Shown: positions 4,088 to 60,458 of the stretch, one piece after another
Numbering within the stretch: the stretch's first letter is position 1
How the letters are laid out: every line of letters begins with the position of its first letter
Assembly (NCBI GenBank): GCA_041497195.1
Contig: JBGQGB010000001.1
Span: forward strand, 73,904 to 137,903
Length of the DNA stretch: 64,000 bases
Direction of reading: 5' to 3'
Origin: Candidatus Doudnabacteria bacterium
GTDB taxonomy: Bacteria > Patescibacteriota > Doudnabacteria > UBA920 > 2-01-FULL-46-14
Position numbers and translations under genes: made by a program
Notes under the pieces: generated by a model
The model's input: the letters and a program-made list of their open reading frames with translations, nothing else
The model's database searches: none
What the model was told of the DNA's origin: nothing

Positions 4088-4879
4088 TCAGGTTGGGTGG
4101 ATAAACCACCCGCGTGCTTTAGCGTTGCGAAATCCTCTGACAAATAACCACAACCCAACACACAAATAAACCACATTCAAAAGAAAAATCGTTACCAAAT
4201 CTGCTGGGCTTGAAGGGCGCCCAAACACGATAATCGCCCGTAAACCCTCAAAAATATGGCTGATTGGCAAAAATTCCGCAATTCTTGCCAAAAAAGGTGG
4301 CAGAGTAGATAGTGGATAAAACACCCCGCTAATCGGATAAATAATGAGTATGAGCGACCAGGCGACTGCTTGGGCTTTTGTTCCAAAACGGAAAATCAAA
4401 GATGCGGTGAAATAGCCAAACGCCCAGCTAAACAAAAATATATTGAATATGTAAAAAAAGATTACAGTACCCACCTGGAAAATGCTGAAATGGAACACTC
4501 CCCAAGCGATGGCGAGAATAATCGCAATGATGACGCAAGCTTTAATCACGGAAATGAATAAGGACCCGAGGATGATCTCCGCGAGACGAAGCGGAGTAGA
4601 ATACAAATTGTACAAATTCCTACTCCACGCGTCGTCCAACACCGAAAAAGACATGTCCCGCTGAATATTATAAATCATCGTCCATAAAATGATTGCTCCA
4701 AGGATCGCGCCCGCGACGCCCGCCTGAACGTTCAGCTTGTTTATGTACACGGTCAAAAAACCGAACGTCAAAATATCAATCACCGGAAAAAAGAAAATAT
4801 CGGCCTTGCGGTCGAGACTCGCCCTGATTTCGTACAAATGCCGGAGCATATAAGCTCTGATGCGATGAAATTCGATCAT
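4088..4879 (-). CDS. ABC-2 type transporter permease
   Basis: Six predicted TM helices. Immediately downstream of the ABC ATPase with a 4-nt overlap. Confidence 0.6.
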   Translation of the reverse strand: MIEFHRIRAYMLRHLYEIRASLDRKADIFFFPVIDILTFGFLTVYINKLNVQAGVAGAILGAIILWTMIYNIQRDMSFSVLDDAWSRNLYNLYSTPLRLAEIILGSLFISVIKACVIIAIILAIAWGVFHFSIFQVGTVIFFYIFNIFLFSWAFGYFTASLIFRFGTKAQAVAWSLILIIYPISGVFYPLSTLPPFLARIAEFLPISHIFEGLRAIIVFGRPSSPADLVTIFLLNVVYLCVGLWLFVRGFRNAKARGWFIHPT

Positions 4880-5625: not shown

Positions 5626-6322
5626 AAAGACGAAAATATTCGTACTTGAGCCACTCTTTGCCCAATTTTCCCGGCAGGCTATCAAAAATAGCACCTTCAT
5701 CCAATTGGGAGACGTGAAACCGGATCGTTTTTGCTTTAGTTGTGGAATTTATTTTAATTTTGAGATTTGGTTGCGCGTGGCGAATTTTATCCAGGGCGAT
5801 ATATTTCCCATATTTCCGGCGTTCACCCAAAAAACCTGGTGCTTTGGCCGCAATTTCCGGCGGGACGCAAAAACAACAAAATGGCACTTTTAATTTTTTC
5901 GCTACTTGGGCCGCAACCAAGCTGACAGCGATGTGATCCAAATGCCCCGAAATACCGTCTTTGTCAAAACTAAAAATGACGTCAGGACGATAGTTCCTGG
6001 CTATGCGTAGCAATTTCCCGAATAACTGCGCCTTGAACTTGTTTACCGACCCATCAGGCAAGCCAAGCAAATGCAGTTTTTTTACGTGTAGAAATTTAGC
6101 CGCTCTCTCAAGCTCTTTCCGCCGCAATGCCTTGACCTGCCGGACTGACAAGGGTCGCAGCAAATGTGAAGTCCCCCGCTCGCCCAAAGTGGCGCAGACT
6201 ATTACCGAGCTCCCGCCTGCCAAATAATTTTTGTACACTGTCCCCGCTGCGGCAAAACTTTCATCGTCCGGATGAGCAGTCAGAAACAAAAACTTTTTGC
6301 CGAAAATACTTTGTGCGTTCAT
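5618..6322 (-). CDS. PIG-L / LmbE family N-acetylglucosaminyl deacetylase
   Basis: AHPDDE motif near the N-terminus, later HxDH (GHLDHIAVS). Typical LmbE length. Confidence 0.75.
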   Translation of the reverse strand: MNAQSIFGKKFLFLTAHPDDESFAAAGTVYKNYLAGGSSVIVCATLGERGTSHLLRPLSVRQVKALRRKELERAAKFLHVKKLHLLGLPDGSVNKFKAQLFGKLLRIARNYRPDVIFSFDKDGISGHLDHIAVSLVAAQVAKKLKVPFCCFCVPPEIAAKAPGFLGERRKYGKYIALDKIRHAQPNLKIKINSTTKAKTIRFHVSQLDEGAIFDSLPGKLGKEWLKYEYFRLYG

Positions 6323-6325
6323 ATC

Positions 6326-7468
6326 TTAGGAGTTCAAAATGACATCTACCGTTTTCTTGGCAGTCTCGCTCCAATCAAACCTTCTGATATTCTCAAATCC
6401 CGCCTCTATTTTTTCTTTGCGGATCGCCTCATCGCTCCAAAGACTTTTGATAGCTTTGCTAATTTCCCACTCAGACCCTGGATCAACTATCAAAGAGCCG
6501 CGTCCTGCTATCTCTGGATTGCTTGCCGTATTGGACGTGATGACAGTGGTACCGCATGCCTGGGCTTCAATAATCGGTAAACCGAAACCTTCATAAAACG
6601 TCGGAAACAAAAAAATTCTTGCTCCAGAATATAGTGCTGCTTTGTCCAATTCTGGCACATATCCCAAAAATTTGATTCGGCTTTTCAAGTCTGGCTTGTC
6701 GGTCAAATATTGCTCCACATCAGAAATGCGCACTATGCGGCCAGCTAGAACGAGCGGTTGTTGAATCTGCGACTGCTCATAACCTTTTATAATTCCCAAA
6801 ATATTTTTCTTTGGCTCCAATCGCCCCACGAACAAAAGGTATTCTCTTGCCAGTAGACCATATTTTACCAAAGCCGAGGTTAACTCTTGGCTATCTGAAA
6901 CCTTGAATCTATTCTTATCAAACCCCAAATGAGTGACGGTAATCCTATCTTCCGGATAACCAAAAACTTCTGCGATGCGTTTTTTACTAAATTCGGACAC
7001 TGTAAACATATGAGCAGCGCTACGAGCTGCCAGCTTGGCCGCAAAATGGTGATACCACCGCGATAGACTATCATACAGCTCTGGATAATCTTCAAACCCG
7101 ATATCATGTAGGGTCGTCAGGGTTTTTTGCGGGTGGATCAAGGGAATCGTATGAGCCGGGCAGAACAAAACGTCCGGCGGGTGCAAAAGCATTTCCCAGG
7201 AAAGCCGCAGTTGCCCCCAAAAATACCGAAGCGGCCACCGCAAAATCTTTACTTCCCAGCCCGAGGCTGGTCCGCCTTGGGCGGAGAAATTTTTCGGCAG
7301 ACCCTCTGCCAAATCCTTTTCAAGGGGACCGCGCACGTATAAACGGACTTGAACGTCTTTTCGACCGGCCAATAGTTTCTTGAATTCTTGAATCAAATTG
7401 AAAGCATACCACTCTGTCCCGCTTCTGACCTTCCGATTCGCCTGAGATGCATCAATACCTAAGATCAT
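6326..7468 (-). CDS. GT4-family (GT-B) glycosyltransferase
   Basis: C-terminal EGFGLPIIEAQACGTTVI motif (the EX7E region of retaining GT4 enzymes). Confidence 0.8.
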   Translation of the reverse strand: MILGIDASQANRKVRSGTEWYAFNLIQEFKKLLAGRKDVQVRLYVRGPLEKDLAEGLPKNFSAQGGPASGWEVKILRWPLRYFWGQLRLSWEMLLHPPDVLFCPAHTIPLIHPQKTLTTLHDIGFEDYPELYDSLSRWYHHFAAKLAARSAAHMFTVSEFSKKRIAEVFGYPEDRITVTHLGFDKNRFKVSDSQELTSALVKYGLLAREYLLFVGRLEPKKNILGIIKGYEQSQIQQPLVLAGRIVRISDVEQYLTDKPDLKSRIKFLGYVPELDKAALYSGARIFLFPTFYEGFGLPIIEAQACGTTVITSNTASNPEIAGRGSLIVDPGSEWEISKAIKSLWSDEAIRKEKIEAGFENIRRFDWSETAKKTVDVILNS

Positions 7469-11622: not shown

Positions 11623-12213
11623 TTAGCCGTCGCGATTAACAGCACGAGCAGCGATGGCAAAAACTATAGCACTGCTTACCAAAAGCGGGAACCAAACTTG
11701 CGAGTACCAGGGAGTAGGAATCAAAAACAAAACGTCCCGAGTCAGCAGCGAACCAGGCCACCTGATAATCGCCCATAAGCCAGCGTAATAAAAAATGTCC
11801 CAAAATGCGAAAGCCCACAGAAACGCCGCGACCCGAACGCGATTTTTTTTCGCACTCAAAACCGCTACGCTGAAAAGAATCAACATACTATATGCTTCGC
11901 GTGCCACTTCGACTGCAAGCAAAGTCCCCGGGAGATCGGTCAAGCGTAGCGGTTGTTGATAAAAACTGGCGCTTTTGCTGAATATTTCGGCAAACGACAC
12001 AGTATATCCTGGCAACAATCCTACCGCTGCGCGAAGATACACCACGACTGCCGCTTCAACCACTCCAAAACTCGCTCCAAAAATCGTCAGATAGACTAGG
12101 GTGATCCGCCGCAAACCAAACCCTCTTCTACCCAAAACAAAATAAAGCCATAAAGGTATTAAGATAAGAAGATTGACCCACCAAGGCTCTGCCAAAAGTT
12201 TAAATGTTTGCAT
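11623..12213 (-). CDS. Integral membrane protein, function unknown
   Basis: About six TM helices. No recognisable catalytic motif. Confidence 0.4.
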   Translation of the reverse strand: MQTFKLLAEPWWVNLLILIPLWLYFVLGRRGFGLRRITLVYLTIFGASFGVVEAAVVVYLRAAVGLLPGYTVSFAEIFSKSASFYQQPLRLTDLPGTLLAVEVAREAYSMLILFSVAVLSAKKNRVRVAAFLWAFAFWDIFYYAGLWAIIRWPGSLLTRDVLFLIPTPWYSQVWFPLLVSSAIVFAIAARAVNRDG

Positions 12214-12231
12214 GTTTATCTATCGCTTCGT

Positions 12232-13029
12232 TCACCAGCTAGTTTTATTGGCACTATTATCCACATATAATTCATAATAAGACAAAATAACGCTGCTACT
12301 TATCAAAACCCAAAAAAAGAATTCTTCGAACGGAAATTCAAGAGCAAATATTTTAATGGTCCCAACATAATGTCCAGGAAAATTCCATTGCCCCAGTTTT
12401 ACTGCGAGAAGCTCATACGCGAGAAAAACAAACACAAAAAATAGACTAACTTTGAGAAAATTAATTATCATGGCTGGTTTTTTCGAAATTAAATACAAAA
12501 ATGGTAGCATGGCGCATATCCCAAAAACCAGGTAGGCGTAATTTATTTTTAAAAAATGAGGATAATAAATATAGATAAAAAGAATTGCAACAATGGCGAA
12601 CAATGATGGAATCAGCGCGTGCTTATAACTGGGAGATATTGTGTCGGATGCATTCCTTTCTAGAAAATGCTCGTAAAAGACGATTATAAATATTATCCAA
12701 AGAACAAACCATAATGTTTCATCGAGCGGAACCAATCCTAAAATACGAAACTTGAAAACCAACTGATTATCCGGAACAAACCAAGCTCTGTTAAAAACTG
12801 CCAAAAAATCAAAAACAAAACCAAAAATCACACCGAACAAAAACGAGGAGGCTAAAACTCTATGTATTTTTCTTGGTTTCCAACTCAAAAGGTAAATAGA
12901 AGGAATTAAAAAAAAGTATATTGCTGAAACCAAAGGCCTTACCTGAAATTGTATGATCAAGGGGATGGAGAATAAAATTATTAATATGACGACTATTAAA
13001 TCAATCAGTCTTTTTTGATGTTTTTTCAT
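12232..13029 (-). CDS. Integral membrane protein with lycopene-cyclase-domain-like repeats
   Basis: Polytopic protein with two acidic PxEE/PFEE-type motifs (LVPLDETLWFVLW and LEFPFEEFFFWVL) of the kind seen in CrtYcd-type lycopene cyclase domain proteins. Confidence 0.35.
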   Translation of the reverse strand: MKKHQKRLIDLIVVILIILFSIPLIIQFQVRPLVSAIYFFLIPSIYLLSWKPRKIHRVLASSFLFGVIFGFVFDFLAVFNRAWFVPDNQLVFKFRILGLVPLDETLWFVLWIIFIIVFYEHFLERNASDTISPSYKHALIPSLFAIVAILFIYIYYPHFLKINYAYLVFGICAMLPFLYLISKKPAMIINFLKVSLFFVFVFLAYELLAVKLGQWNFPGHYVGTIKIFALEFPFEEFFFWVLISSSVILSYYELYVDNSANKTSW

Positions 13030-52336: not shown

Positions 52337-52834
52337 CTATACAACTTTGCCAATGTTAGCCTTTATAATTTCTAGTGCAGCTTTATGTAAATGCAAACTA
52401 CTATGACTAGCTGACAGGTTTTTAAAAACTACCACCTTGAACCCTCTGTAAAAAGCGTCTCTCGCAAAAGTAAGAACACAGTTTTCTGTATCAATACCAG
52501 CTAATTCAACTTGCTCAATTTCATTATCTTTAAGATAAGCGAGTAATTTATCATCCACAAAACTACTATAGGTATATTTTAAATAAAGATTGTTACTTTG
52601 AATAAACCCTTTAAGTTCATCAACAATATCTGTTTGTTTATTATTCAAGAACCCTTTCCAATTTAAATTTTTAGCAAAATTACTACTTTTACGGTTCATA
52701 TATTTTGTAAAAATAATCAGTTTATAGTTCTTTTTATTCTTTAGAATGAAGTTCCTAACTTTTGAAGGAACCTTGTTTGTTAATTTATTTACAAAACCTT
52801 TTTGAATGTCAATTATGATTAAGGCTTTTTTCAT
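52337..52834 (-). CDS. Isochorismatase-family cysteine hydrolase, in an AT-rich segment
   Basis: ALIIIDIQKGF (catalytic Asp), GIDTENCVLTFARDA (catalytic Cys). Roughly 30% GC versus about 50% in the flanks. Confidence 0.7.
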   Translation of the reverse strand: MKKALIIIDIQKGFVNKLTNKVPSKVRNFILKNKKNYKLIIFTKYMNRKSSNFAKNLNWKGFLNNKQTDIVDELKGFIQSNNLYLKYTYSSFVDDKLLAYLKDNEIEQVELAGIDTENCVLTFARDAFYRGFKVVVFKNLSASHSSLHLHKAALEIIKANIGKVV

Positions 52835-52865
52835 AAAAATGTTGGCTGCCCTGACAGTGCAAAAA

Positions 52866-53492
52866 CTAAAAAATCGAAAATCCCAAGAACAGTTTGGAGA
52901 GCACGGATAGAATGGGGACCAGAACCGCGTTGATAAGGCCCAAATAGAGAAACAAGATTATCAAAATAAATCCATATCGTTCCAGAGAGAAAATTTTGTA
53001 CATGATTTCATCCGAGAACAGGCTCGCCACTACTTTTGATCCGTCCAGAGGCGGAATCGGCACCAGATTGAAAATCCCCAGACCCAGATTGAGGATGGTT
53101 CCCTGCAGCAAAATCCCGTAAGCGAAACTTGACTCTGCCACCAAACCCAGACGGATCGGCAGCGCAAACGCCAAAGCCAGGAGAAAATTCGCCCCCGGCC
53201 CGGCCAGCGAGACCAAGGCCATATCCCGCTTGGGATTGCGCAGGTTAAAAAAGTTCACTGGCACGGGTTTGGCCGAGCCGAAGAGTATGGGCGAGTGAAC
53301 CAAAAATAAAAACGCCGGCAACAACACTGAACCAAACAGGTCCAAGTGCGGCAGCGGATTGAGAGTCAGCCGCCCGGCCCAGCGCGCGGTATGGTCGCCA
53401 AGGTAGTCAGCCACGACCCCATGGCAAAGTTCGTGCAACACGACTGAAAAAAGCAGAATGACGAGCGTGATTACTATTGACCACAAATCCAT
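52866..53492 (-). CDS. M50-family site-2 metalloprotease (small, SpoIVFB-like core)
   Basis: HELCHG (HExxH) in TM1, LDGS-type motif later, 208 aa. Confidence 0.7.
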   Translation of the reverse strand: MDLWSIVITLVILLFSVVLHELCHGVVADYLGDHTARWAGRLTLNPLPHLDLFGSVLLPAFLFLVHSPILFGSAKPVPVNFFNLRNPKRDMALVSLAGPGANFLLALAFALPIRLGLVAESSFAYGILLQGTILNLGLGIFNLVPIPPLDGSKVVASLFSDEIMYKIFSLERYGFILIILFLYLGLINAVLVPILSVLSKLFLGFSIF

Positions 53493-55861: not shown

Positions 55862-56929
55862 CTAGCGGGTGAAGTATACGAATTCCAAAACAATCAGGAT
55901 GAACCAGCCGATTTGCAGGACGAAAAAAGCCCCGATTTGGATAAATTCCAAAACCTGCATGCGCGACATTCCCAAATTTTCCGAAACGATCGTGTAGACA
56001 TCTTCCAAAGATTCGAGCTTGTCGCGAATTGTTTGCCGCCATTCTCCCAAGCGGAATTTCCGGGAAAGCGCTTCGTACAATCGGGCCGAATACCAGTCAC
56101 CGATAAGTTTGATTTCTCGCTCCAATGCCTCGAAATGGGCGATGGCGTCTGCGCGAATTTTTATCACTTCCCGAAACGCTTGCGTGACGTCTTTTGTCCG
56201 GAACCATCGGCTCGTGTCGGTTTTCACCAGCTGATAGGCGCGCCCCAGCTGTACGTCAAGACGCTGATCCAGCATACGATACCGCAGCAACTGATAGTTC
56301 GCCAGCTCCAGCAGTTCCAGCGTTTCGCCAAACTCCCCTTCCGGATCAAAAACAAACGCACCGTCCCAATCATAAATTAAAAGGTCGTCTTTGGCGTACT
56401 TCAGCTGGTGCGCCAAAGTGTGTTCGACTTCTTTCTCATCCAATTCCAATTTTTCCGATTTGAGCAGGCTGGCAATTTTGGAAGAGTTTTTTTCCAAAAA
56501 CAATTCCGGATCACCCTGATAAGCAGAAATCTGGTAGACTGTGTACTCTTCACTTGGCTCTTCTTTGCCGCCAAATTTCCCGGCGAATTTATAGCACATC
56601 TGCAAAAGTTGTTCCTTCAGCTCGAGTATGTCGCTACCGAACATGTCCGGCACTTCAATACTCCCTTCCACCACGACAACATCCGGGGAATAGGCTTTGG
56701 CTAGGAGTTCTACATCTAGAGTCCCGAGCTTCGCTTTTTTTTGCCCCACAATCGACTGAGCAGGGACTGATTGTTCGAAATAATGCGGCGCGCTACGGAC
56801 CGGCAAAGTCGGCGGAGCTTCTTTGCCCCGTTTTGCCACAACTGCTTCAGCTATTACGAAAGAAGTAATCTTATGCATAACGATTTTAAATGATGAGTTC
56901 GTCCAATCCATGGTCGGGCTGCTGGTCAC
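55862..56929 (-). CDS. Hypothetical protein with C-terminal TM helices (GTG start)
   Basis: Large soluble, acidic, coiled-coil-rich N-terminal region, then a C-terminal hydrophobic hairpin. No motif I can name. Confidence 0.4.
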   Translation of the reverse strand: MTSSPTMDWTNSSFKIVMHKITSFVIAEAVVAKRGKEAPPTLPVRSAPHYFEQSVPAQSIVGQKKAKLGTLDVELLAKAYSPDVVVVEGSIEVPDMFGSDILELKEQLLQMCYKFAGKFGGKEEPSEEYTVYQISAYQGDPELFLEKNSSKIASLLKSEKLELDEKEVEHTLAHQLKYAKDDLLIYDWDGAFVFDPEGEFGETLELLELANYQLLRYRMLDQRLDVQLGRAYQLVKTDTSRWFRTKDVTQAFREVIKIRADAIAHFEALEREIKLIGDWYSARLYEALSRKFRLGEWRQTIRDKLESLEDVYTIVSENLGMSRMQVLEFIQIGAFFVLQIGWFILIVLEFVYFTR

Positions 56930-57028
56930 CGCCTTTGGCGGGATCCCGCCTTCATCTAAAACTTAATAGCTGGGGCGGGAGAATTGATTCGCCGCGGCGG
57001 ACTATATGCCCGCCTGCCATCGCCTCAA

Positions 57029-57099
57029 TCGGGGTGGGGAGAATCGAACTCCCACTACATGCACCCCATGCATGCGTACTACCACTATACTACACCCCG
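57029..57099 (-). tRNA. tRNA-Pro (GGG)
   Basis: Cloverleaf folded by hand: acceptor CGGGGTG/CACCCCG with the C1:G72 pair typical of bacterial tRNA-Pro, D-arm GTAT/AGTGGTA/GTAC, anticodon arm CATGC/ATGGGGT/GCATG (U33, GGG, G37), T-arm GGGAG/TTCGATT/CTCCC, discriminator A. No encoded CCA. Confidence 0.75.
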
Positions 57100-57202
57100 A
57101 TGGTTAACAAACGTATCAATTCATTGTAGCCTTTGTGCGTTTTTAAATAACGTTCCAGGCTTTGGCCTCTAGCTCAATCGTATAACTTTCTTGATTTTAG
57201 CA

Positions 57203-57243
57203 TTTTCTTCGCAAAAATAAAAAACGGGGAGACGCGCACTGCG
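57203..57243 (-). terminator. Intrinsic terminator downstream of the tRNA gene
   Basis: On the minus strand, CGGGGAGATGCGCAGTGCGCGTCTCCCCG followed by TTTTTTATTTTT. Confidence 0.65.
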
Positions 57244-57283
57244 CATCTCCCCGGCTCAATCAAGCTCCTCCCGGAGGAGGAAT

Positions 57284-57358
57284 TGACTAGGTTTGGAGCG
57301 CACTAAGGGGTTTGAACCCTTGACCTTCTCCTGAGCAAGGAGTTGCTCTACCACTGAG
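57284..57358 (-). tRNA. tRNA of uncertain identity (anticodon GCU by my fold, atypical)
   Basis: Acceptor GCGTACT/AGTGCGC, canonical D-arm GCTC-AGTGGTA-GAGC, T-arm AAGGG-TTCAAAC-CCCTT, discriminator U, encoded CCA. Anticodon arm ACTCC-TTGCTCA-GGAGA has an A:A mismatch at 27:43, C at position 37 and a short variable loop, which would be unusual for tRNA-Ser(GCU). Confidence 0.55.
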
Positions 57359-57392
57359 CTAAGTACGCCCCGTTAAATGTCATTGTGCAAGC

Positions 57393-57671
57393 CTATTGGT
57401 CCGCAGTTTCGCGAAATGCGTCTGATGGCCGTAGCAGTCTCCAGCCGTCAGGACCTTTGACCACCACAAGACGCACGCTAACGCTATGATGCTCCGAACA
57501 TTTGGGACCGTGCGGGTGAGCAAAGGTTAGCCTGGCTGGACAGACTTGCCCGGCCGGAACGATCTGTCCCACTTTAAGCTTGGCAGAACCGACCACGTGG
57601 GAGAACAGGGAATACTCCACATCTTTGTTTTCTGGCAACGGTCTTCCCTCCTCTTTAAATTTTTTCAGCAC
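57393..57671 (-). CDS. Hypothetical protein (92 aa)
   Basis: ORF only. The sequence is not low complexity, but I see no motif I recognise. Confidence 0.3.
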   Translation of the reverse strand: MLKKFKEEGRPLPENKDVEYSLFSHVVGSAKLKVGQIVPAGQVCPARLTFAHPHGPKCSEHHSVSVRLVVVKGPDGWRLLRPSDAFRETADQ

Positions 57672-57881
57672 ACTGGGCCAGTGGTTCCGGGAACTGGTTC
57701 TTCGCCTTTCGACAACTGCTGAGAACCACGCTCCTGGCTCGGATCAAAATCTTGGCAGATTGGCAGTTGGCCTTGTGGTAGCAACGACTTTTGTAGTCGC
57801 GGTTCAGGTTGGTAGTTATCTGGTCTGGGCTCAGCAATAGGCTCAGGTATCTGGCGGGAAGTCTCTGTCATCTTCGTCCAC

Positions 57882-58199
57882 CTAGGATATGCCAGGAACC
57901 AATTGCTGAACAGCTACATGAACGCGATCGGGTTGACCGCGCAGCCAGTTCTGGTAAATAGACGCTTTGACTTGCTGCCGCCATGCTGGCCCTTCGCATG
58001 CCTTGTAAATACTCAACATATCATGATAACTCCTGGCCAGGGTTTTTCTCTGCTTGGCAAGCTCCCGCAAAGTGGCAGGACTGTTTGGCCCAGACTTGGC
58101 AACTTCCTCGCGTCGCAAGTTATTGTGTTTTGTCAAAACTTCCTGCAATCGACATAGCTCCCGATAAAGCTCTGGCAACTCATCACGCATCTTTTGCAT
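57882..58199 (-). CDS. Hypothetical protein, gene 4 of a GC-rich cassette
   Basis: 105 aa. Same orientation as the three ORFs upstream. Confidence 0.35.
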   Translation of the reverse strand: MQKMRDELPELYRELCRLQEVLTKHNNLRREEVAKSGPNSPATLRELAKQRKTLARSYHDMLSIYKACEGPAWRQQVKASIYQNWLRGQPDRVHVAVQQLVPGIS

Positions 58200-58267
58200 G
58201 CTCCCCTCCTATGGGTGGTAGTTGAGGGTTGGCGGTTTCGCGTCCGAGGCTTGCGACGCAGCGCGTT

Positions 58268-58528
58268 TCAGTCGTGAAGTCCTTTCTCGCGGTGGTTGTG
58301 ATGCAGCTGCAAATAGAGCTTCAGCGCCACGTCCAATTGCCTGATTTGCTCTTTTAGTGAACTCAAGCTTGCCTGAGTGGCCTGATCAAGCTCGCCCTTT
58401 TTGGCTGTCTCACCCTTGAGCACTTTTTTCAGCTTACGGATTTGCCTTCTTAGACTAGGGATTTCCTGAAGGACATGCTTGGCATGCAACTTCATACGTC
58501 CGTGGTCCGGGTGATGGGTTTTATTCAA
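58268..58528 (-). CDS. Hypothetical coiled-coil protein, gene 3 of the cassette
   Basis: 86 aa. Its start overlaps the upstream stop in an ATGA arrangement. Confidence 0.35.
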   Translation of the reverse strand: MNKTHHPDHGRMKLHAKHVLQEIPSLRRQIRKLKKVLKGETAKKGELDQATQASLSSLKEQIRQLDVALKLYLQLHHNHREKGLHD

Positions 58529-58896
58529 CGTACCTCCTCGGTTTGGGTTGGGCGGCCCGTAATGCGCTGTCCGCTGCGGACAAAAGATTGTTGCTTGTGA
58601 CTGGAACTGACTGCAGCAGGTTCACACGGCATGGTCAGAAACCAAGTCTGTGGAACTCCACATTTGTAACACCGCATAAATGCAGTGTGCAAATGATGAT
58701 GAGCCAAAGGCGTATGGCCGTTGAACTCATCAATCGCTGCTGCTTCTCGCTGCACAGATGAGGGCAGGAAAAACCGCCCGACGAGTCGATCTAGAACATC
58801 GATGGCACGAATTGCCTGCCACCTGATTCTGCCTCGACGTTTATAGCGAAGAAAATCCCGCTGCGAAGTTTGAAACGACCAGGCACGTTGGATCAT
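58525..58896 (-). CDS. Hypothetical protein with His cluster (HHHLH) and CYKCG, gene 2 of the cassette
   Basis: 123 aa. Its start overlaps the upstream stop in an ATGA arrangement. Confidence 0.35.
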   Translation of the reverse strand: MIQRAWSFQTSQRDFLRYKRRGRIRWQAIRAIDVLDRLVGRFFLPSSVQREAAAIDEFNGHTPLAHHHLHTAFMRCYKCGVPQTWFLTMPCEPAAVSSSHKQQSFVRSGQRITGRPTQTEEVR

Positions 58897-59087
58897 TCCC
58901 GCAACCCCTTTGGCGACATGGAAGAGCGATCCGTGCTCCTCCCCGCAGCTTTCACAGCTTGGGCGTGCAGATCAGTCGCTTCGGGACAAATTTCTCGTTT
59001 GTTCGGATCCACTCGCTTCCCGCAAAACATGCACTGGTTTGGTTTGCCTGCAAGGGTAACATGAAACTTTGCCGCGCGTGCCGTCAT
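58893..59087 (-). CDS. Small zinc-ribbon-like protein (CMFCGK...C), gene 1 of the cassette
   Basis: 64 aa, CxxC plus a downstream Cys. Confidence 0.3.
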   Translation of the reverse strand: MTARAAKFHVTLAGKPNQCMFCGKRVDPNKREICPEATDLHAQAVKAAGRSTDRSSMSPKGLRE

Positions 59088-59507
59088 ATGTGGTGGCTCT
59101 CCTCTAAGTTAACTTACTAGGCTTGCACCTAGTCCTCCATTCGATTTGTAAAGATCCATCCGGAACAGAGGCAGAAACAGCCGAAATTTGCGGCTGTTTC
59201 TGCCCCCGCTCCAGGCTCGCAACACCTCCTGCTAAAAACCAAAATTCCGCTTTCTGGCGGAACTTTAGGTTTTTGCTGCGAGTTTAGACTAAACTTTTAG
59301 CTTACACATAAGTTCCGCTTTGATCTGCTAAGGATCAAATTAATGCTAAACATGCGGACAATAGTTTGTCCGGCAGGTTTGGCATTCCAGATTCTCTTAG
59401 CTGATGCGGATTTGCTCATGCTTAAGCCAAAAATTAATCTTAGGAATCATCATAGCATAAATTGAATATCTGTCAAGACGAAACTGCGAACTTTTCCACA
59501 ATCAGGC

Positions 59508-60458
59508 TCAGGTAAACTTGCTTACGATATCATTGAGCTCTTCATCCGAGTAAAATTCGATGGTGATTTTGCCGCCTTTGGCCCCTTTGTTGACTGCCAC
59601 ACGGGTGCCCAATTTATTGCGCAGGAGGTTTTCCAGTGATTCCAGAAACGGGTCGGGCGTGAACATCTCCTGGACTTTGATCTTGCGCTTTCTGATCTCG
59701 CGGACTTTTGACTCGATATCACGCACTTTCATCTGATCACGCACGACTATTTGAAACATTTGCAGCATTTCTTCGTTATCCCGCAGCGACAGCAAGGGCC
59801 GGGCTTGCCCTTCGGAAATCACTTCTTCGATAAGAGCGCGCTGAATCTCAACCGGCAGATTCAAAAGCCTGATGAGATTGCTGATCGTCGAATCGTGTTT
59901 ACCGACGCGCTGCGCAATTTGCTGGAGGCTGAGGCCAAACTCCTGCTGCAGCCGCTGGTAGGCGCGGGCCTCCTCAACGGGATTGAGATCTGCCCGCTGA
60001 ATGTTTTCGATGAGCGCCACCTCAAGCTTCGCTTCATCGGAGAGGCTGGCGTTGACAAATACTGGCACGCGGCTGAGGCCAGCCAGCCTGGCAGCGCGAA
60101 AACGCCGCTCGCCCACGACGATTTCGTATCTGCCGTCTGTGCGCTTGACCACCACGAGCGGCTGAATGATACCGTGTGCTCTGATGGACTCAGCAAGTTC
60201 GTGAAGTTTTTCTTCGTTGAAAATCCGACGCGGCTGAAATTCATTGGGAACAATTTGTTCCAATTCGATTTCCAGAAACGGCTGCCCAGCGCTGGTATGG
60301 AATTTGGGCTGCGGGTCAGACGCTACGTTTGGGCGCTTCATGATCGGTTGCCCGGCGCTCTGGGCTTTCGTCGGTGCTCCTGCCAAATCATCCAAATCAT
60401 CCAGTCCATCTGAATTTTCCATCCCGCCAAAATTGCCCAGTCGAAATGAATCGTCCAT
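59508..60458 (-). CDS. parB: ParB-family partition protein
   Basis: GIIQPLVVVKRTDGRYEIVVGERRFRAARLAGL ParB box, HTH region. No adjacent parA. Confidence 0.85.
   Translation of the reverse strand: MDDSFRLGNFGGMENSDGLDDLDDLAGAPTKAQSAGQPIMKRPNVASDPQPKFHTSAGQPFLEIELEQIVPNEFQPRRIFNEEKLHELAESIRAHGIIQPLVVVKRTDGRYEIVVGERRFRAARLAGLSRVPVFVNASLSDEAKLEVALIENIQRADLNPVEEARAYQRLQQEFGLSLQQIAQRVGKHDSTISNLIRLLNLPVEIQRALIEEVISEGQARPLLSLRDNEEMLQMFQIVVRDQMKVRDIESKVREIRKRKIKVQEMFTPDPFLESLENLLRNKLGTRVAVNKGAKGGKITIEFYSDEELNDIVSKFT

Follow-up and report, generated by a model that had tools for sequence, protein, structure and literature searches.

Ribosome-dependent attenuators, among them the trp-type and the antibiotic-sensing leaders, classically rest on a 1:2 / 2:3 / 3:4 arrangement of alternative RNA pairings. 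Such an arrangement is also predicted for the locus described here, which lies on the minus strand between parB and a gene for tRNA-Pro(GGG) in a stretch of 64,000 nucleotides from Candidatus Doudnabacteria bacterium (GenBank assembly GCA_041497195.1, contig JBGQGB010000001.1, positions 73,904 to 137,903; this whole stretch is hereafter called the window). It is most defensibly described as an operon that is controlled by a leader, encodes small basic proteins specific to the lineage as well as an atypical tRNA, and occupies a hypervariable slot found across the clade between parB and tRNA-Pro(GGG). Like the trpL-type and antibiotic-sensing attenuators, the locus combines a promoter-proximal upstream open reading frame (uORF), three mutually exclusive pairings and a terminator directly before the genes that would be regulated, and the stop codon of the uORF stands where a terminating ribosome could mask segment 2. 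However, the locus also departs from these systems in several ways. Its uORF is long (34–41 codons) and runs across the whole of a rod that is closed by 5'-3' pairing, there is neither a run of regulatory codons nor a Shine-Dalgarno sequence, and an invariant single-stranded block precedes the terminator. Furthermore, the genes that would be regulated are hypervariable ORFans and a tRNA instead of biosynthetic or resistance genes, the RNA is not in Rfam, and one lineage possesses the RNA but no uORF.

Flexible genomic islands resemble the slot in having conserved flanks (here the leader and tRNA-Pro), unrelated content in close relatives and a sharp recombination boundary. In contrast to such islands, the slot is tiny (0.4–2.7 kb), contains only tiny soluble basic proteins, shows neither an integrase nor att sites and has one conserved promoter that is predicted to be regulated. 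The type I toxin mRNAs of hok/sok and aapA/isoA share with the leader a small open reading frame (ORF), an initiation region sequestered by pairing with the 3' part and a terminator hairpin. Here, however, the encoded peptide is inconsistently hydrophobic, no antisense RNA gene is evident, and the downstream genes need read-through. What is new about the locus is mainly the RNA family of the leader together with its unusual cargo, and not the ORFs as such. The genomes of the candidate phyla radiation (CPR/Patescibacteria) are tiny, few of their regulators are known, hardly any regulatory RNAs have been described from them, and a conserved leader of attenuator architecture would offer a testable handle on gene regulation in these bacteria.

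A leader RNA conserved behind parB

Related loci were gathered via ParB, whose matches were labelled Saccharibacteria, Doudnabacteria or Parcubacteria, all of them CPR/Patescibacteria. Nine distinct loci with 67–84% identical ParB were obtained: L012 (the same organism as L104 and L039), L105, L106, L107/108, L109, L110, L111, L112/113 and L114. In all nine, a promoter, a rod-like structure, an invariant CGCAGCAAA block and a terminator are found directly after parB, in one copy each, while the element occurs neither elsewhere in the 64-kb window nor in 65 loci from a metagenome scan anchored on MJ0711_N. In the window itself, parB (with ParB_N, HTH_ParB and ParB_C domains) ends at 59508, and the blastn alignment with L012, the closest relative (82% identity in ParB and 74% in MJ0711_N), continues past the parB stop to 59233. 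The first-pass annotation of the window, made from the sequence alone, had regarded this region as a 420-nt highly structured spacer. The strong structure was borne out, since the rod has a minimum free energy of -62 kcal/mol and a z-score of -8.2 against dinucleotide shuffles. However, the region is not a passive gap but a conserved element and probably the regulatory core of the locus. For annotation this is a warning, as what appears to be an intergenic spacer is a conserved functional element.

The leader RNAs of the relatives measure 90–270 nt. When the nine sequences were folded alone, the rod was recovered in each of them (z-scores of -2.7 to -10.2), with the 5' end pairing just before the conserved block. 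The basal helix of the rod covaries through compensatory changes: it reads GAUUA/UAGUC in the window, L012, L107 and L109, GAUUA/UAAUC in L106 and L110, GGUUA/UAACC in L105 and GGUAA/UUACC in L112. In L106 only a hairpin of 13 bp and a 3-nt loop is left of the rod. Between rod and terminator sits the single-stranded block (...ACUCGCAGCAAAAACC...), and across the relatives the terminator itself follows the pattern (A)AGTTCCGC-loop-GCGGAATTTTGG.

The leader promoter is the only strong promoter-like site in the interval 56900-59600. Its -35 and its TGnTAnnAT element are kept in 9/9 relatives, where the pattern is TTGACA-16/17-TGnTAnnAT. Shortly upstream of the -35, seven of the nine loci (L105, L106, L107, L109, L110 and L112 among them) carry a DnaA-box-like TGTGGAwAw motif, which in L105 and L107 takes the perfect form TGTGGATAA. 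This suggests a DnaA input to the leader promoter, a regulatory role that we infer from the motif and its position only.

A permissive Rfam scan of 59080-59520 (441 nt) gave no match for the leader, the best score being 20 bits against cut-offs of at least 50, and in the literature nothing was found on such an RNA in CPR bacteria. Several known identities were considered and rejected. Signal recognition particle RNA, 6S RNA, tmRNA, RNase P RNA and a riboswitch lack Rfam support, the apex of the rod is unconserved, and there is no central bubble. A protein-coding cause of the conserved blocks was ruled out, because the same block is read in two frames. An origin of replication at the leader was dismissed as well, as only one imperfect DnaA box is present there and the boxes of the window cluster at ~11.9–12.7 kb.

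That cluster is an observation in its own right. It extends over positions 11954-12701 (a further one lies at 4096-4319), includes at 12257 the sole perfect TTATCCACA of the window and may represent the replication origin. When sites with up to one mismatch are counted, the whole window contains about twice the number of DnaA-box matches expected from shuffled sequence.

The upstream open reading frame and its alternative pairings

The uORF lies inside the rod and starts with the conserved ATGAGCAAA. It encodes 34–41 aa in six relatives, and in six of eight relatives no stop codon interrupts the frame between the conserved ATG and segment 2. When the interiors of the uORFs were shuffled, the frames stayed open in 11–28% of the trials each, which corresponds to a joint probability of ~3e-4. 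The peptides themselves are poorly conserved: their common part is the N-terminal MSK- only, and translation of the GCGGAACTTATG block gives AELM in three lineages and (K/E)RNL in another three. An unconserved peptide that is read in two frames points to a constraint on the RNA and on the open frame, and not on the peptide.

The same data bear on the idea that the uORF encodes a type I toxin-like membrane peptide, the mRNA of which would be locked by 5'-3' pairing, as part of an addiction or stress module adjacent to parB. A peptide of 34–41 aa would be of suitable size, the rod is closed by base pairs that join the 5' untranslated region (UTR) and the surroundings of the start codon to those of the stop codon, and two of the peptides, from L109 and L111, resemble transmembrane segments (Kyte-Doolittle value KD(15) of ~3). 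However, these two are the only ones among seven peptides that are hydrophobic enough (maximum KD(15) > 2.9), and the C-termini are read in two frames. In addition, the opposite strand shows no promoter-like site, neither Pfam nor NCBIfam gave a toxin match, and in L106 and L107 the uORF is lost while the rest of the element is retained. Consequently, we consider a toxin very improbable.

In the rod, segment 1 pairs with segment 2. The latter is a near-copy of the 3' arm of the terminator (segment 4, GCGGAAUUUUGG), and in each of the eight RNAs that carry it, no other stretch of the upstream RNA pairs better with segment 3 (AAGUUCCGC, 59265-59257). With -10.3 to -13.7 kcal/mol for the 2:3 pairing, compared to -10.2 to -14.4 kcal/mol for the terminator hairpins, the two alternatives are of similar strength. 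In an alignment of the 3' halves, 96% of the cells of the 2:3 helix are paired, while slid controls were paired to at most 51%. Two pairs of this helix are compensatory, C-G being replaced by U-A in L107 and A-U by G-C in L110. This degree of pairing together with two compensatory pairs was reached by only 4 of 500 shuffles. The 3:4 terminator helix is almost invariant, with 97% of the cells paired across eight relatives. In six RNAs the stop codon of the uORF lies 13–21 nt past the start of segment 2, and a ribosome terminating there would thus cover this segment. Between the leader terminator and the first gene of the cassette, g1, no promoter-like site was found. In L106, L107 and L111 the Shine-Dalgarno sequence of the first gene follows within ~20–30 nt of the terminator, a distance too short to accommodate a promoter of its own. 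The architecture expected of an attenuator is therefore present: a uORF stands upstream of an intrinsic terminator, and a conserved antiterminator that excludes the terminator is located at the end of the uORF.

We tentatively interpret the leader as a uORF-dependent transcription attenuator that might gate the small-protein and tRNA operon, and give this interpretation a little less than an even chance. What we infer are the ends of the transcript, the dependence on translation and the link between leader and cargo. According to this model, 59500-57225 on the minus strand would form one transcription unit that comprises the promoter, the leader, a second hairpin, g1–g6, the atypical tRNA and a strong terminator. 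If the uORF is not translated, segment 1 would pair with segment 2, the 3:4 terminator would form, and transcription would stop at ~59234. A ribosome engaged or stalled in the uORF would free segment 2, and the resulting 2:3 antiterminator would permit read-through into g1–g6 and the tRNA. A ribosome that has arrived at the uORF stop would mask segment 2, and termination would be restored. In this way, expression of the cargo would follow the state of translation.

Several observations speak against attenuation as the full explanation. The uORF has no Shine-Dalgarno sequence, and no run of regulatory codons recurs among the uORFs. Pro codons that are read by tRNA-Pro(GGG) are present in only two of seven uORF peptides. 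L106 lacks both the uORF and segment 2 and yet has P1, the conserved block and the terminator, and in L107 the uORF is broken; from these two exceptions it follows that attenuation is not the sole conserved function. Moreover, the invariant CGCAGCAAA block plays no part in the attenuator model. Most helices of the leader are invariant in both arms, so that the covariation derives from few events in 8–9 sequences. Finally, in the window a terminator precedes tRNA-Pro, so that the unit need not include this conserved tRNA.

These observations lead to another explanation, according to which the leader is a gene of its own, either a dual-function small RNA (sRNA), a small-protein mRNA or a trans-acting sRNA with CGCAGCAAA as its seed, that ends at its own terminator, and the cassette is expressed separately or reached by incidental read-through. 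A hairpin, a single-stranded block and a Rho-independent terminator make up a typical sRNA architecture. The block, which attenuation leaves unused, is the most conserved element, and P1, the block and the terminator are all that L106 retains; the uORF, for its part, is kept in most lineages. However, an independent gene would not account for the missing promoter-like site for g1 after the terminator, for the Shine-Dalgarno sequences that abut the terminator in three relatives, or for the mimicry of segment 4 by segment 2 and the covariation of the 2:3 helix. Neither is there a clearly enriched complementary target in the window, where 18 complement matches to the block compare with 10.5 expected, a marginal excess that was reached by 3 of 100 shuffles. 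We thus regard an independent gene as rather unlikely. Between both explanations, it is plausible that the terminated leader of an attenuator acts as an sRNA as well, given the uORFs devoid of regulatory codons and Shine-Dalgarno sequences, the unused block and the L106 RNA without uORF.

Genes and proteins of the cassette

The first-pass annotation had listed four co-directional minus-strand ORFs of 64, 123, 86 and 105 aa at 59087-57882 and a further one at 57393-57671. All five are confirmed by the ORF listing. The count, however, has to be raised, as g5 (57665-57871) had been missed, and the minus strand carries six consecutive co-directional ORFs, g1–g6 (Table 1). The anatomy of the locus as given in the table is very likely correct.

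Table 1. Features of the interval between parB and tRNA-Pro(GGG), in the order of transcription. Coordinates refer to the window.
Feature	Position (strand)	Description
DnaA-box-like motif TGTGGAAAA	59492-59500 (-)	One mismatch to TTATCCACA; just upstream of the -35
Promoter TTGACA-16-TATGAT	59449-59476 (-)	Sigma-70-type, extended -10 TG; 11/12 matches
Structured leader RNA, ~210 nt	59234-59441 (-)	5' arm 59440-59421 pairs with 3' arm 59305-59286, forming the rod
Segment 1 CAUGAGCAAAUCCGC	59420-59406 (-)	First five uORF codons
uORF MSKSASAKRIWNAKPAGQTIVRMFSINLILSRSKRNLCVS	59297-59419 (-)	40 codons; inside the rod, first five codons are segment 1
Segment 2 GCGGAACTTATG / GCGGAACUUAUG	59307-59318 (-)	Among the last uORF codons
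Single-stranded block AAACTCGCAGCAAAAACCTA	59266-59285 (-)	CGCAGCAAA invariant in 9/9
Intrinsic terminator of the leader	59234-59268 (-)	Segment 3 AAGTTCCGC (59265-59257), loop, segment 4 GCGGAATTTT (59250-59241), GGTTTTT
Second long hairpin	59162-59212 (-)	25-nt arms; between leader terminator and g1 (g1 5' UTR)
g1	58893-59087 (-)	64 aa; ATG start, AGGAG Shine-Dalgarno; first slot gene
g2	58525-58896 (-)	123 aa; ATG start, overlaps g1 stop
g3	58268-58528 (-)	86 aa; TTG start 58528, GAGGAGG Shine-Dalgarno
g4	57882-58199 (-)	105 aa; ATG start, AGGAGGGGA Shine-Dalgarno
g5	57665-57871 (-)	68 aa; ATG start; acidic, Pro-rich
g6	57393-57671 (-)	92 aa with the GTG start; more likely TTG start 57638, giving 81 aa
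Atypical tRNA, anticodon GCU	57294-57368 (-)	24 nt after g6, before the strong terminator
Intrinsic terminator, distal	57225-57253 (-)	13 pairs (10 G-C), then TTTTTTATTT; closes the transcription unit
tRNA-Pro(GGG)	57028-57100 (-)	Conserved distal boundary of the slot

The first two junctions had both been described as ATGA overlaps. This is true for g1/g2 (..GGGAATGATCC..), while g2/g3 (..CGTTGAATAAA..) turned out to be a TTGA overlap, with the TTG start of g3 located 4 nt behind GAGGAGG and the earliest ATG of g3 only at codon 12. Overlapping stop and start codons, the hallmark of translational coupling, are hence found in consecutive genes at g1/g2 and g2/g3. Between g4 and g5 the gap is 10 nt, whereas a gap of 68 nt shows that g3 and g4 are not coupled. 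For g6, the TTG at 57638 behind the GAGGAGGG Shine-Dalgarno sequence is the more likely start and is the one used in public gene calls as well. Public pipelines disagree on the cassette, one of them calling only a 75-aa g3 plus g4.

Several lines of evidence indicate that these ORFs are not fortuitous. At 57393-59087, 95% of the minus strand lies within ORFs of at least 60 aa, whereas 2000 shuffled sequences averaged 29% and never exceeded 75%. At proper spacing, GGAGG or AGGAG precedes g1, g3, g4 and g6 (from its TTG), the background frequency of such motifs being 8.8%, and AGGTGGA precedes g5; among 13 flanking genes with public start calls, three have a strong Shine-Dalgarno sequence. Codon usage was scored with a table trained on the long ORFs of the window, 28 of which served as reference (scores 0.01–0.29). 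The annotated frame was the best of six for each of g1–g6, and g3 (0.13), g6 (0.06) and g4 (0.03) fall within the low end of the long-ORF range. GC content by codon position is host-like for the same three genes, with GC1/2/3 = 0.60/0.28/0.59 in g3. The earlier suggestion of real and coupled genes is thus upheld by Shine-Dalgarno sites, best-frame codon scores and start/stop overlap. We conclude that at least most of g1–g6 are probably real genes, and judging by these features they look like operon-organised ORFans.

This conclusion has to be weighed against a number of less favorable findings. The codon scores of g1, g2 and g5 are ~0 and below those of all 28 reference ORFs, and g1 is omitted by the public gene calls on identical contigs (loci L001-L009). 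Every contig with the proteins of the window is 100% identical and represents one strain in several samples, which gives no sequence variation among copies of g1–g6. An exhaustive HMMER search with g2 against 1.84 billion representatives returned g2 itself and one artefact. The latter, P0003, is a protein of 1170 aa with 13 identical tandem repeats, the weak matches of which sum up to a spurious hit. Among 5.8 billion clusters g4 found itself only. The genes g1, g3, g5 and g6 entered the large protein searches only inside a concatenated g1–g6 query of 538 aa, which was uninformative, as it did not recover its own proteins from the 5.8-billion-cluster database.

In the light of these findings, g1–g6, or most of them, might be non-functional: transient proto-genes or decaying remnants in a fast-changing spacer that is transcribed by read-through. 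The self-only matches of g2 and g4, the lack of family matches, the weak codon scores of three genes and the low-confidence structure models would all fit, as would the absence of BLAST-level conservation even in the closest relative with its 82% identical ParB. However, non-functional sequence does not explain a same-strand coverage that shuffling never reached, strong and well-spaced Shine-Dalgarno sites together with an ATGA overlap, or host-like codon-position GC in half of the ORFs. Furthermore, the g1 family is kept in four lineages, and equivalent slot genes in L112 and L114 are under purifying selection (see below). Hence we deem it unlikely that the cassette is non-functional. The first-pass annotation had named a single degraded gene in another frame, next to missing conservation, as the alternative to be checked. 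The ORFs are indeed barely conserved, while a six-frame scan gave no sign of such a degraded gene.

None of the six proteins has a significant match in Pfam, PHROGs, PADLOC, NCBIfam or PDB sequences, which agrees with their initial designation as ORFans. Only sub-threshold Pfam matches of coiled-coil type were obtained for g3 and g4. In PADLOC, g3 gave two coiled-coil-type matches at E ~0.01–0.02, and the other ORFs gave none. Since no PADLOC model of a known or candidate anti-phage defence component was significantly matched by g1–g6, the proposal of a defence system found no support. The proteins g1–g4 are strongly basic (isoelectric points of 9.8–11.0; 9.8 for g1 and 11.0 for g2), hydrophilic and without transmembrane segment, and g3 and g4 are basic and helical. 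Single-sequence AF2 models were of low confidence for g2 (helical, pLDDT 53) and uninformative for g6 (pLDDT 44). From its composition, the cargo suggests nucleic-acid-binding small proteins.

The best cross-lineage support among the cassette genes was obtained for g1, which on sequence comparison appears to be the only recurrent member of the slot. It had been described as a zinc ribbon. The CxxC...C motif is present (CxxCG...CP), but with three Cys only g1 looks more like a knuckle protein than a full four-ligand ribbon. A g1-type first slot gene was found in L012, L105 and L112 as well (Smith-Waterman z-scores of 4.6–4.8 for L012 and L105). The L105 and L112 proteins are clear homologues (E = 1e-16), and g1 aligns with the L112 member. 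All four share C-x(1-2)-CG...(P/I/F)C(P/L)...A[IV]KxA[GS]...R[SN]S. Within the family the CxxCG knuckle is invariant (5/5), and the second site is a single Cys-Pro in 4/5, the L109 member lacking the second knuckle. The family profile shows a weak similarity to rubredoxin/rubrerythrin knuckles (E = 0.016–0.05), and Pfam DZR_2 was hit at E = 0.063. As in rubredoxin and zinc-ribbon knuckle mini-proteins, the CxxCG knuckle is followed by a second Cys-Pro; in contrast to these, g1 comprises three Cys only and has no significant family match. With g1, the best-supported gene of the cassette was thus missed by gene callers.

The second hairpin of the leader region correlates with this gene. Its CAGAG/CUCUGU base and the GGAGGA that follows are kept in L012, L105 and L112, which are exactly those lineages with a g1-type first gene. 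The hairpin may be a further regulatory structure in the g1 5' UTR.

Similarities among the other proteins are weaker. In their sequences, g3 and g4 look like distant paralogues, as both contain (D/E)(L/I)P-x-L-x-R-x-(L/I)...VL (E = 0.01, z-score 4.5). Marginal matches connect g4 with a 106-aa slot ORF of L012 (o106) and the N-terminus of g5 with the last slot ORF of L012 (o59b), with z-scores of 2.3–3.0 overall and of 2.8–3.0 for g4. After correction for multiple testing both of these sequence matches are only leads. A resemblance by eye of g2 to a 173-aa protein of L112 was dropped at an alignment z-score below 2.2, and the HHHLH and CYKCG motifs of g2 match no family.

A variable slot between parB and tRNA-Pro

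All nine related loci show the same order: parB, the conserved non-coding element, small unannotated ORFs and, where the contig reaches that far, tRNA-Pro(GGG). The distance from the element to tRNA-Pro ranges from 0.37 kb (L111) to 2.7 kb (L112), and the contents are essentially unrelated across lineages. In comparisons of the window with L012 by blastn and tblastx, parB, the element, tRNA-Pro and MJ0711_N align, and nothing of g1–g6 does. The view of a strain-variable region adjoining the tRNAs is therefore well founded, the slot content differing among the nine loci. In the MJ0711_N-anchored metagenome scan, parB and leader were found upstream only in a fragment identical to L012, which limits the parB-MJ0711 synteny to the window and L012.

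L112 and L114 form a pair of strains that encode the same ParB. Until the middle of a slot gene of 173 aa, no difference separates their DNA (100% identity). Beyond this boundary (~5800-7000) the identity amounts to 78–93% without frame-breaking indels, and from there to tRNA-Pro the sequences cannot be aligned. From the alignment, this switch is a sharp recombination boundary inside a slot gene, and such an abrupt change from 100% to 78–93% identity marks the slot as a recombination hot-spot. For the 173-aa gene the ratio of nonsynonymous to synonymous substitution rates (dN/dS) is 0.12 in frame, compared to 1.4 and 5.1 in the shifted frames of the same strand. A second slot gene (194 aa in one locus and 192 aa in the other) gave 0.35 in frame, 0.81 and 1.06 in the shifted frames and 0.94, 0.37 and 1.68 in antisense. 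The slot genes of L112/L114 are under purifying selection. Thus, the slot of this clade harbors genuine, selected genes.

Conserved flanks, unrelated content in close relatives and recombination, the features of a flexible island, are all present at the slot. According to the proposed model, the slot proteins would be replaced quickly, between lineages and also from one strain to the next, while the leader and tRNA-Pro(GGG) would be kept across the clade. Even a genome of ~1 Mb would hence keep a dedicated place for the gain, loss and exchange of small proteins. That strains with identical ParB differ so abruptly in their slot bears on the origin and persistence of ORFans. One might go further and speculate that a clade-specific ribosome-sensing RNA whose promoter is flanked by a DnaA-box-like motif gates a recombination hot-spot, which in these ultra-small bacteria would act as a constantly renewed reservoir of tiny basic zinc-knuckle and coiled-coil proteins and non-standard tRNAs. 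We regard this as a bold and rather improbable extension of the attenuator model. If true, such a small-protein diversification cassette could serve the interaction with a host or with phages, or the control of nucleoid and translation.

Two observations concern relatives beyond the slot. L012 and L104 differ at six sites only. Between tRNA-Pro and MJ0711_N both contain an ORF of 129 aa (L012 2704-3093, L104 2807-3196) that is not in the window; it holds four of the six single-nucleotide polymorphisms, three of these four being non-synonymous. An ORF of 88–89 aa of the GIY-YIG type, not in the window either, adjoins tRNA-Pro(GGG) in L106 (5741-6007), L107/L108 (3393-3662) and L110 (7082-7351) and could contribute to rearrangement at the tRNA-Pro boundary.

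The tRNA genes at the distal end

The two tRNA genes that had been noted directly downstream of the cassette (57294-57368 and 57028-57100) were found by both ARAGORN and Rfam, and they are the only two that pass in Rfam. ARAGORN calls the first of them Ser(gct), and Rfam gives it 61.9 bits and a good cloverleaf. However, bacterial tRNA-Ser is expected to have a long variable arm and a purine at position 37, while the present tRNA has a variable region of 5 nt and C37 in an anticodon loop reading UUGCUCA, besides an A27.A43 mismatch in the stem. It is therefore not a normal bacterial tRNA-Ser, and on these sequence features the 'tRNA-Ser' of the annotation is probably wrong. Its acceptor stem (G1-C72, C2-G71, G3-C70) and its discriminator U73 are tRNA-Gly-like. 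The equivalent of this tRNA in L012 is an ordinary tRNA-Trp(CCA).

Base composition and signs of mobile elements

The cassette had been suspected to be GC-rich and to derive, as cargo or as a remnant, from an element inserted at the tRNA genes. For the composition this is weakly supported at best. The block has 52.8% GC compared to 50.0% for the window (standard deviation 2.75 among equally long windows); it thus lies about one standard deviation above the mean, at the 89th percentile. The flanks have 47.8% and 50.9%, and parB itself, with 53.0%, exceeds the block. Consequently, the block is no compositional island.

A mobile element or prophage that had integrated beside the tRNA genes, perhaps one of the IS91-like HUH type, would be in line with the variable content adjoining tRNA genes, the atypical extra tRNA, the GIY-YIG ORFs beside tRNA-Pro in three relatives and the slight elevation in GC. 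However, Pfam detected no HUH, Y2 or IS91 domain, not even a degraded one, in g1–g6, in the concatenation of g1–g4 or in the six frames of 57371-59110, and the resemblance of g2 to such enzymes proposed before was not substantiated. Integrase, recombinase and transposase domains were likewise absent from the ORFs, the concatenation and the six frames. No direct repeat of either tRNA end exists in 56900-59600. A tblastn search of phages and plasmids yielded no relatives, and a scan of viral contigs with the g2 protein found none; three DNA matches of viral contigs to the leader-core pattern were rejected as chance, being without terminator. In addition, slot and leader occupy a constant chromosomal position throughout the clade. 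The mobile-element explanation, integration at the tRNA included, is thus largely refuted, and we consider it highly improbable.

Elsewhere in the window, an AT-rich trough was observed at ~52400-53000, where the GC content drops to 0.28–0.30 in 400-nt windows compared to ~0.50 in the remainder.

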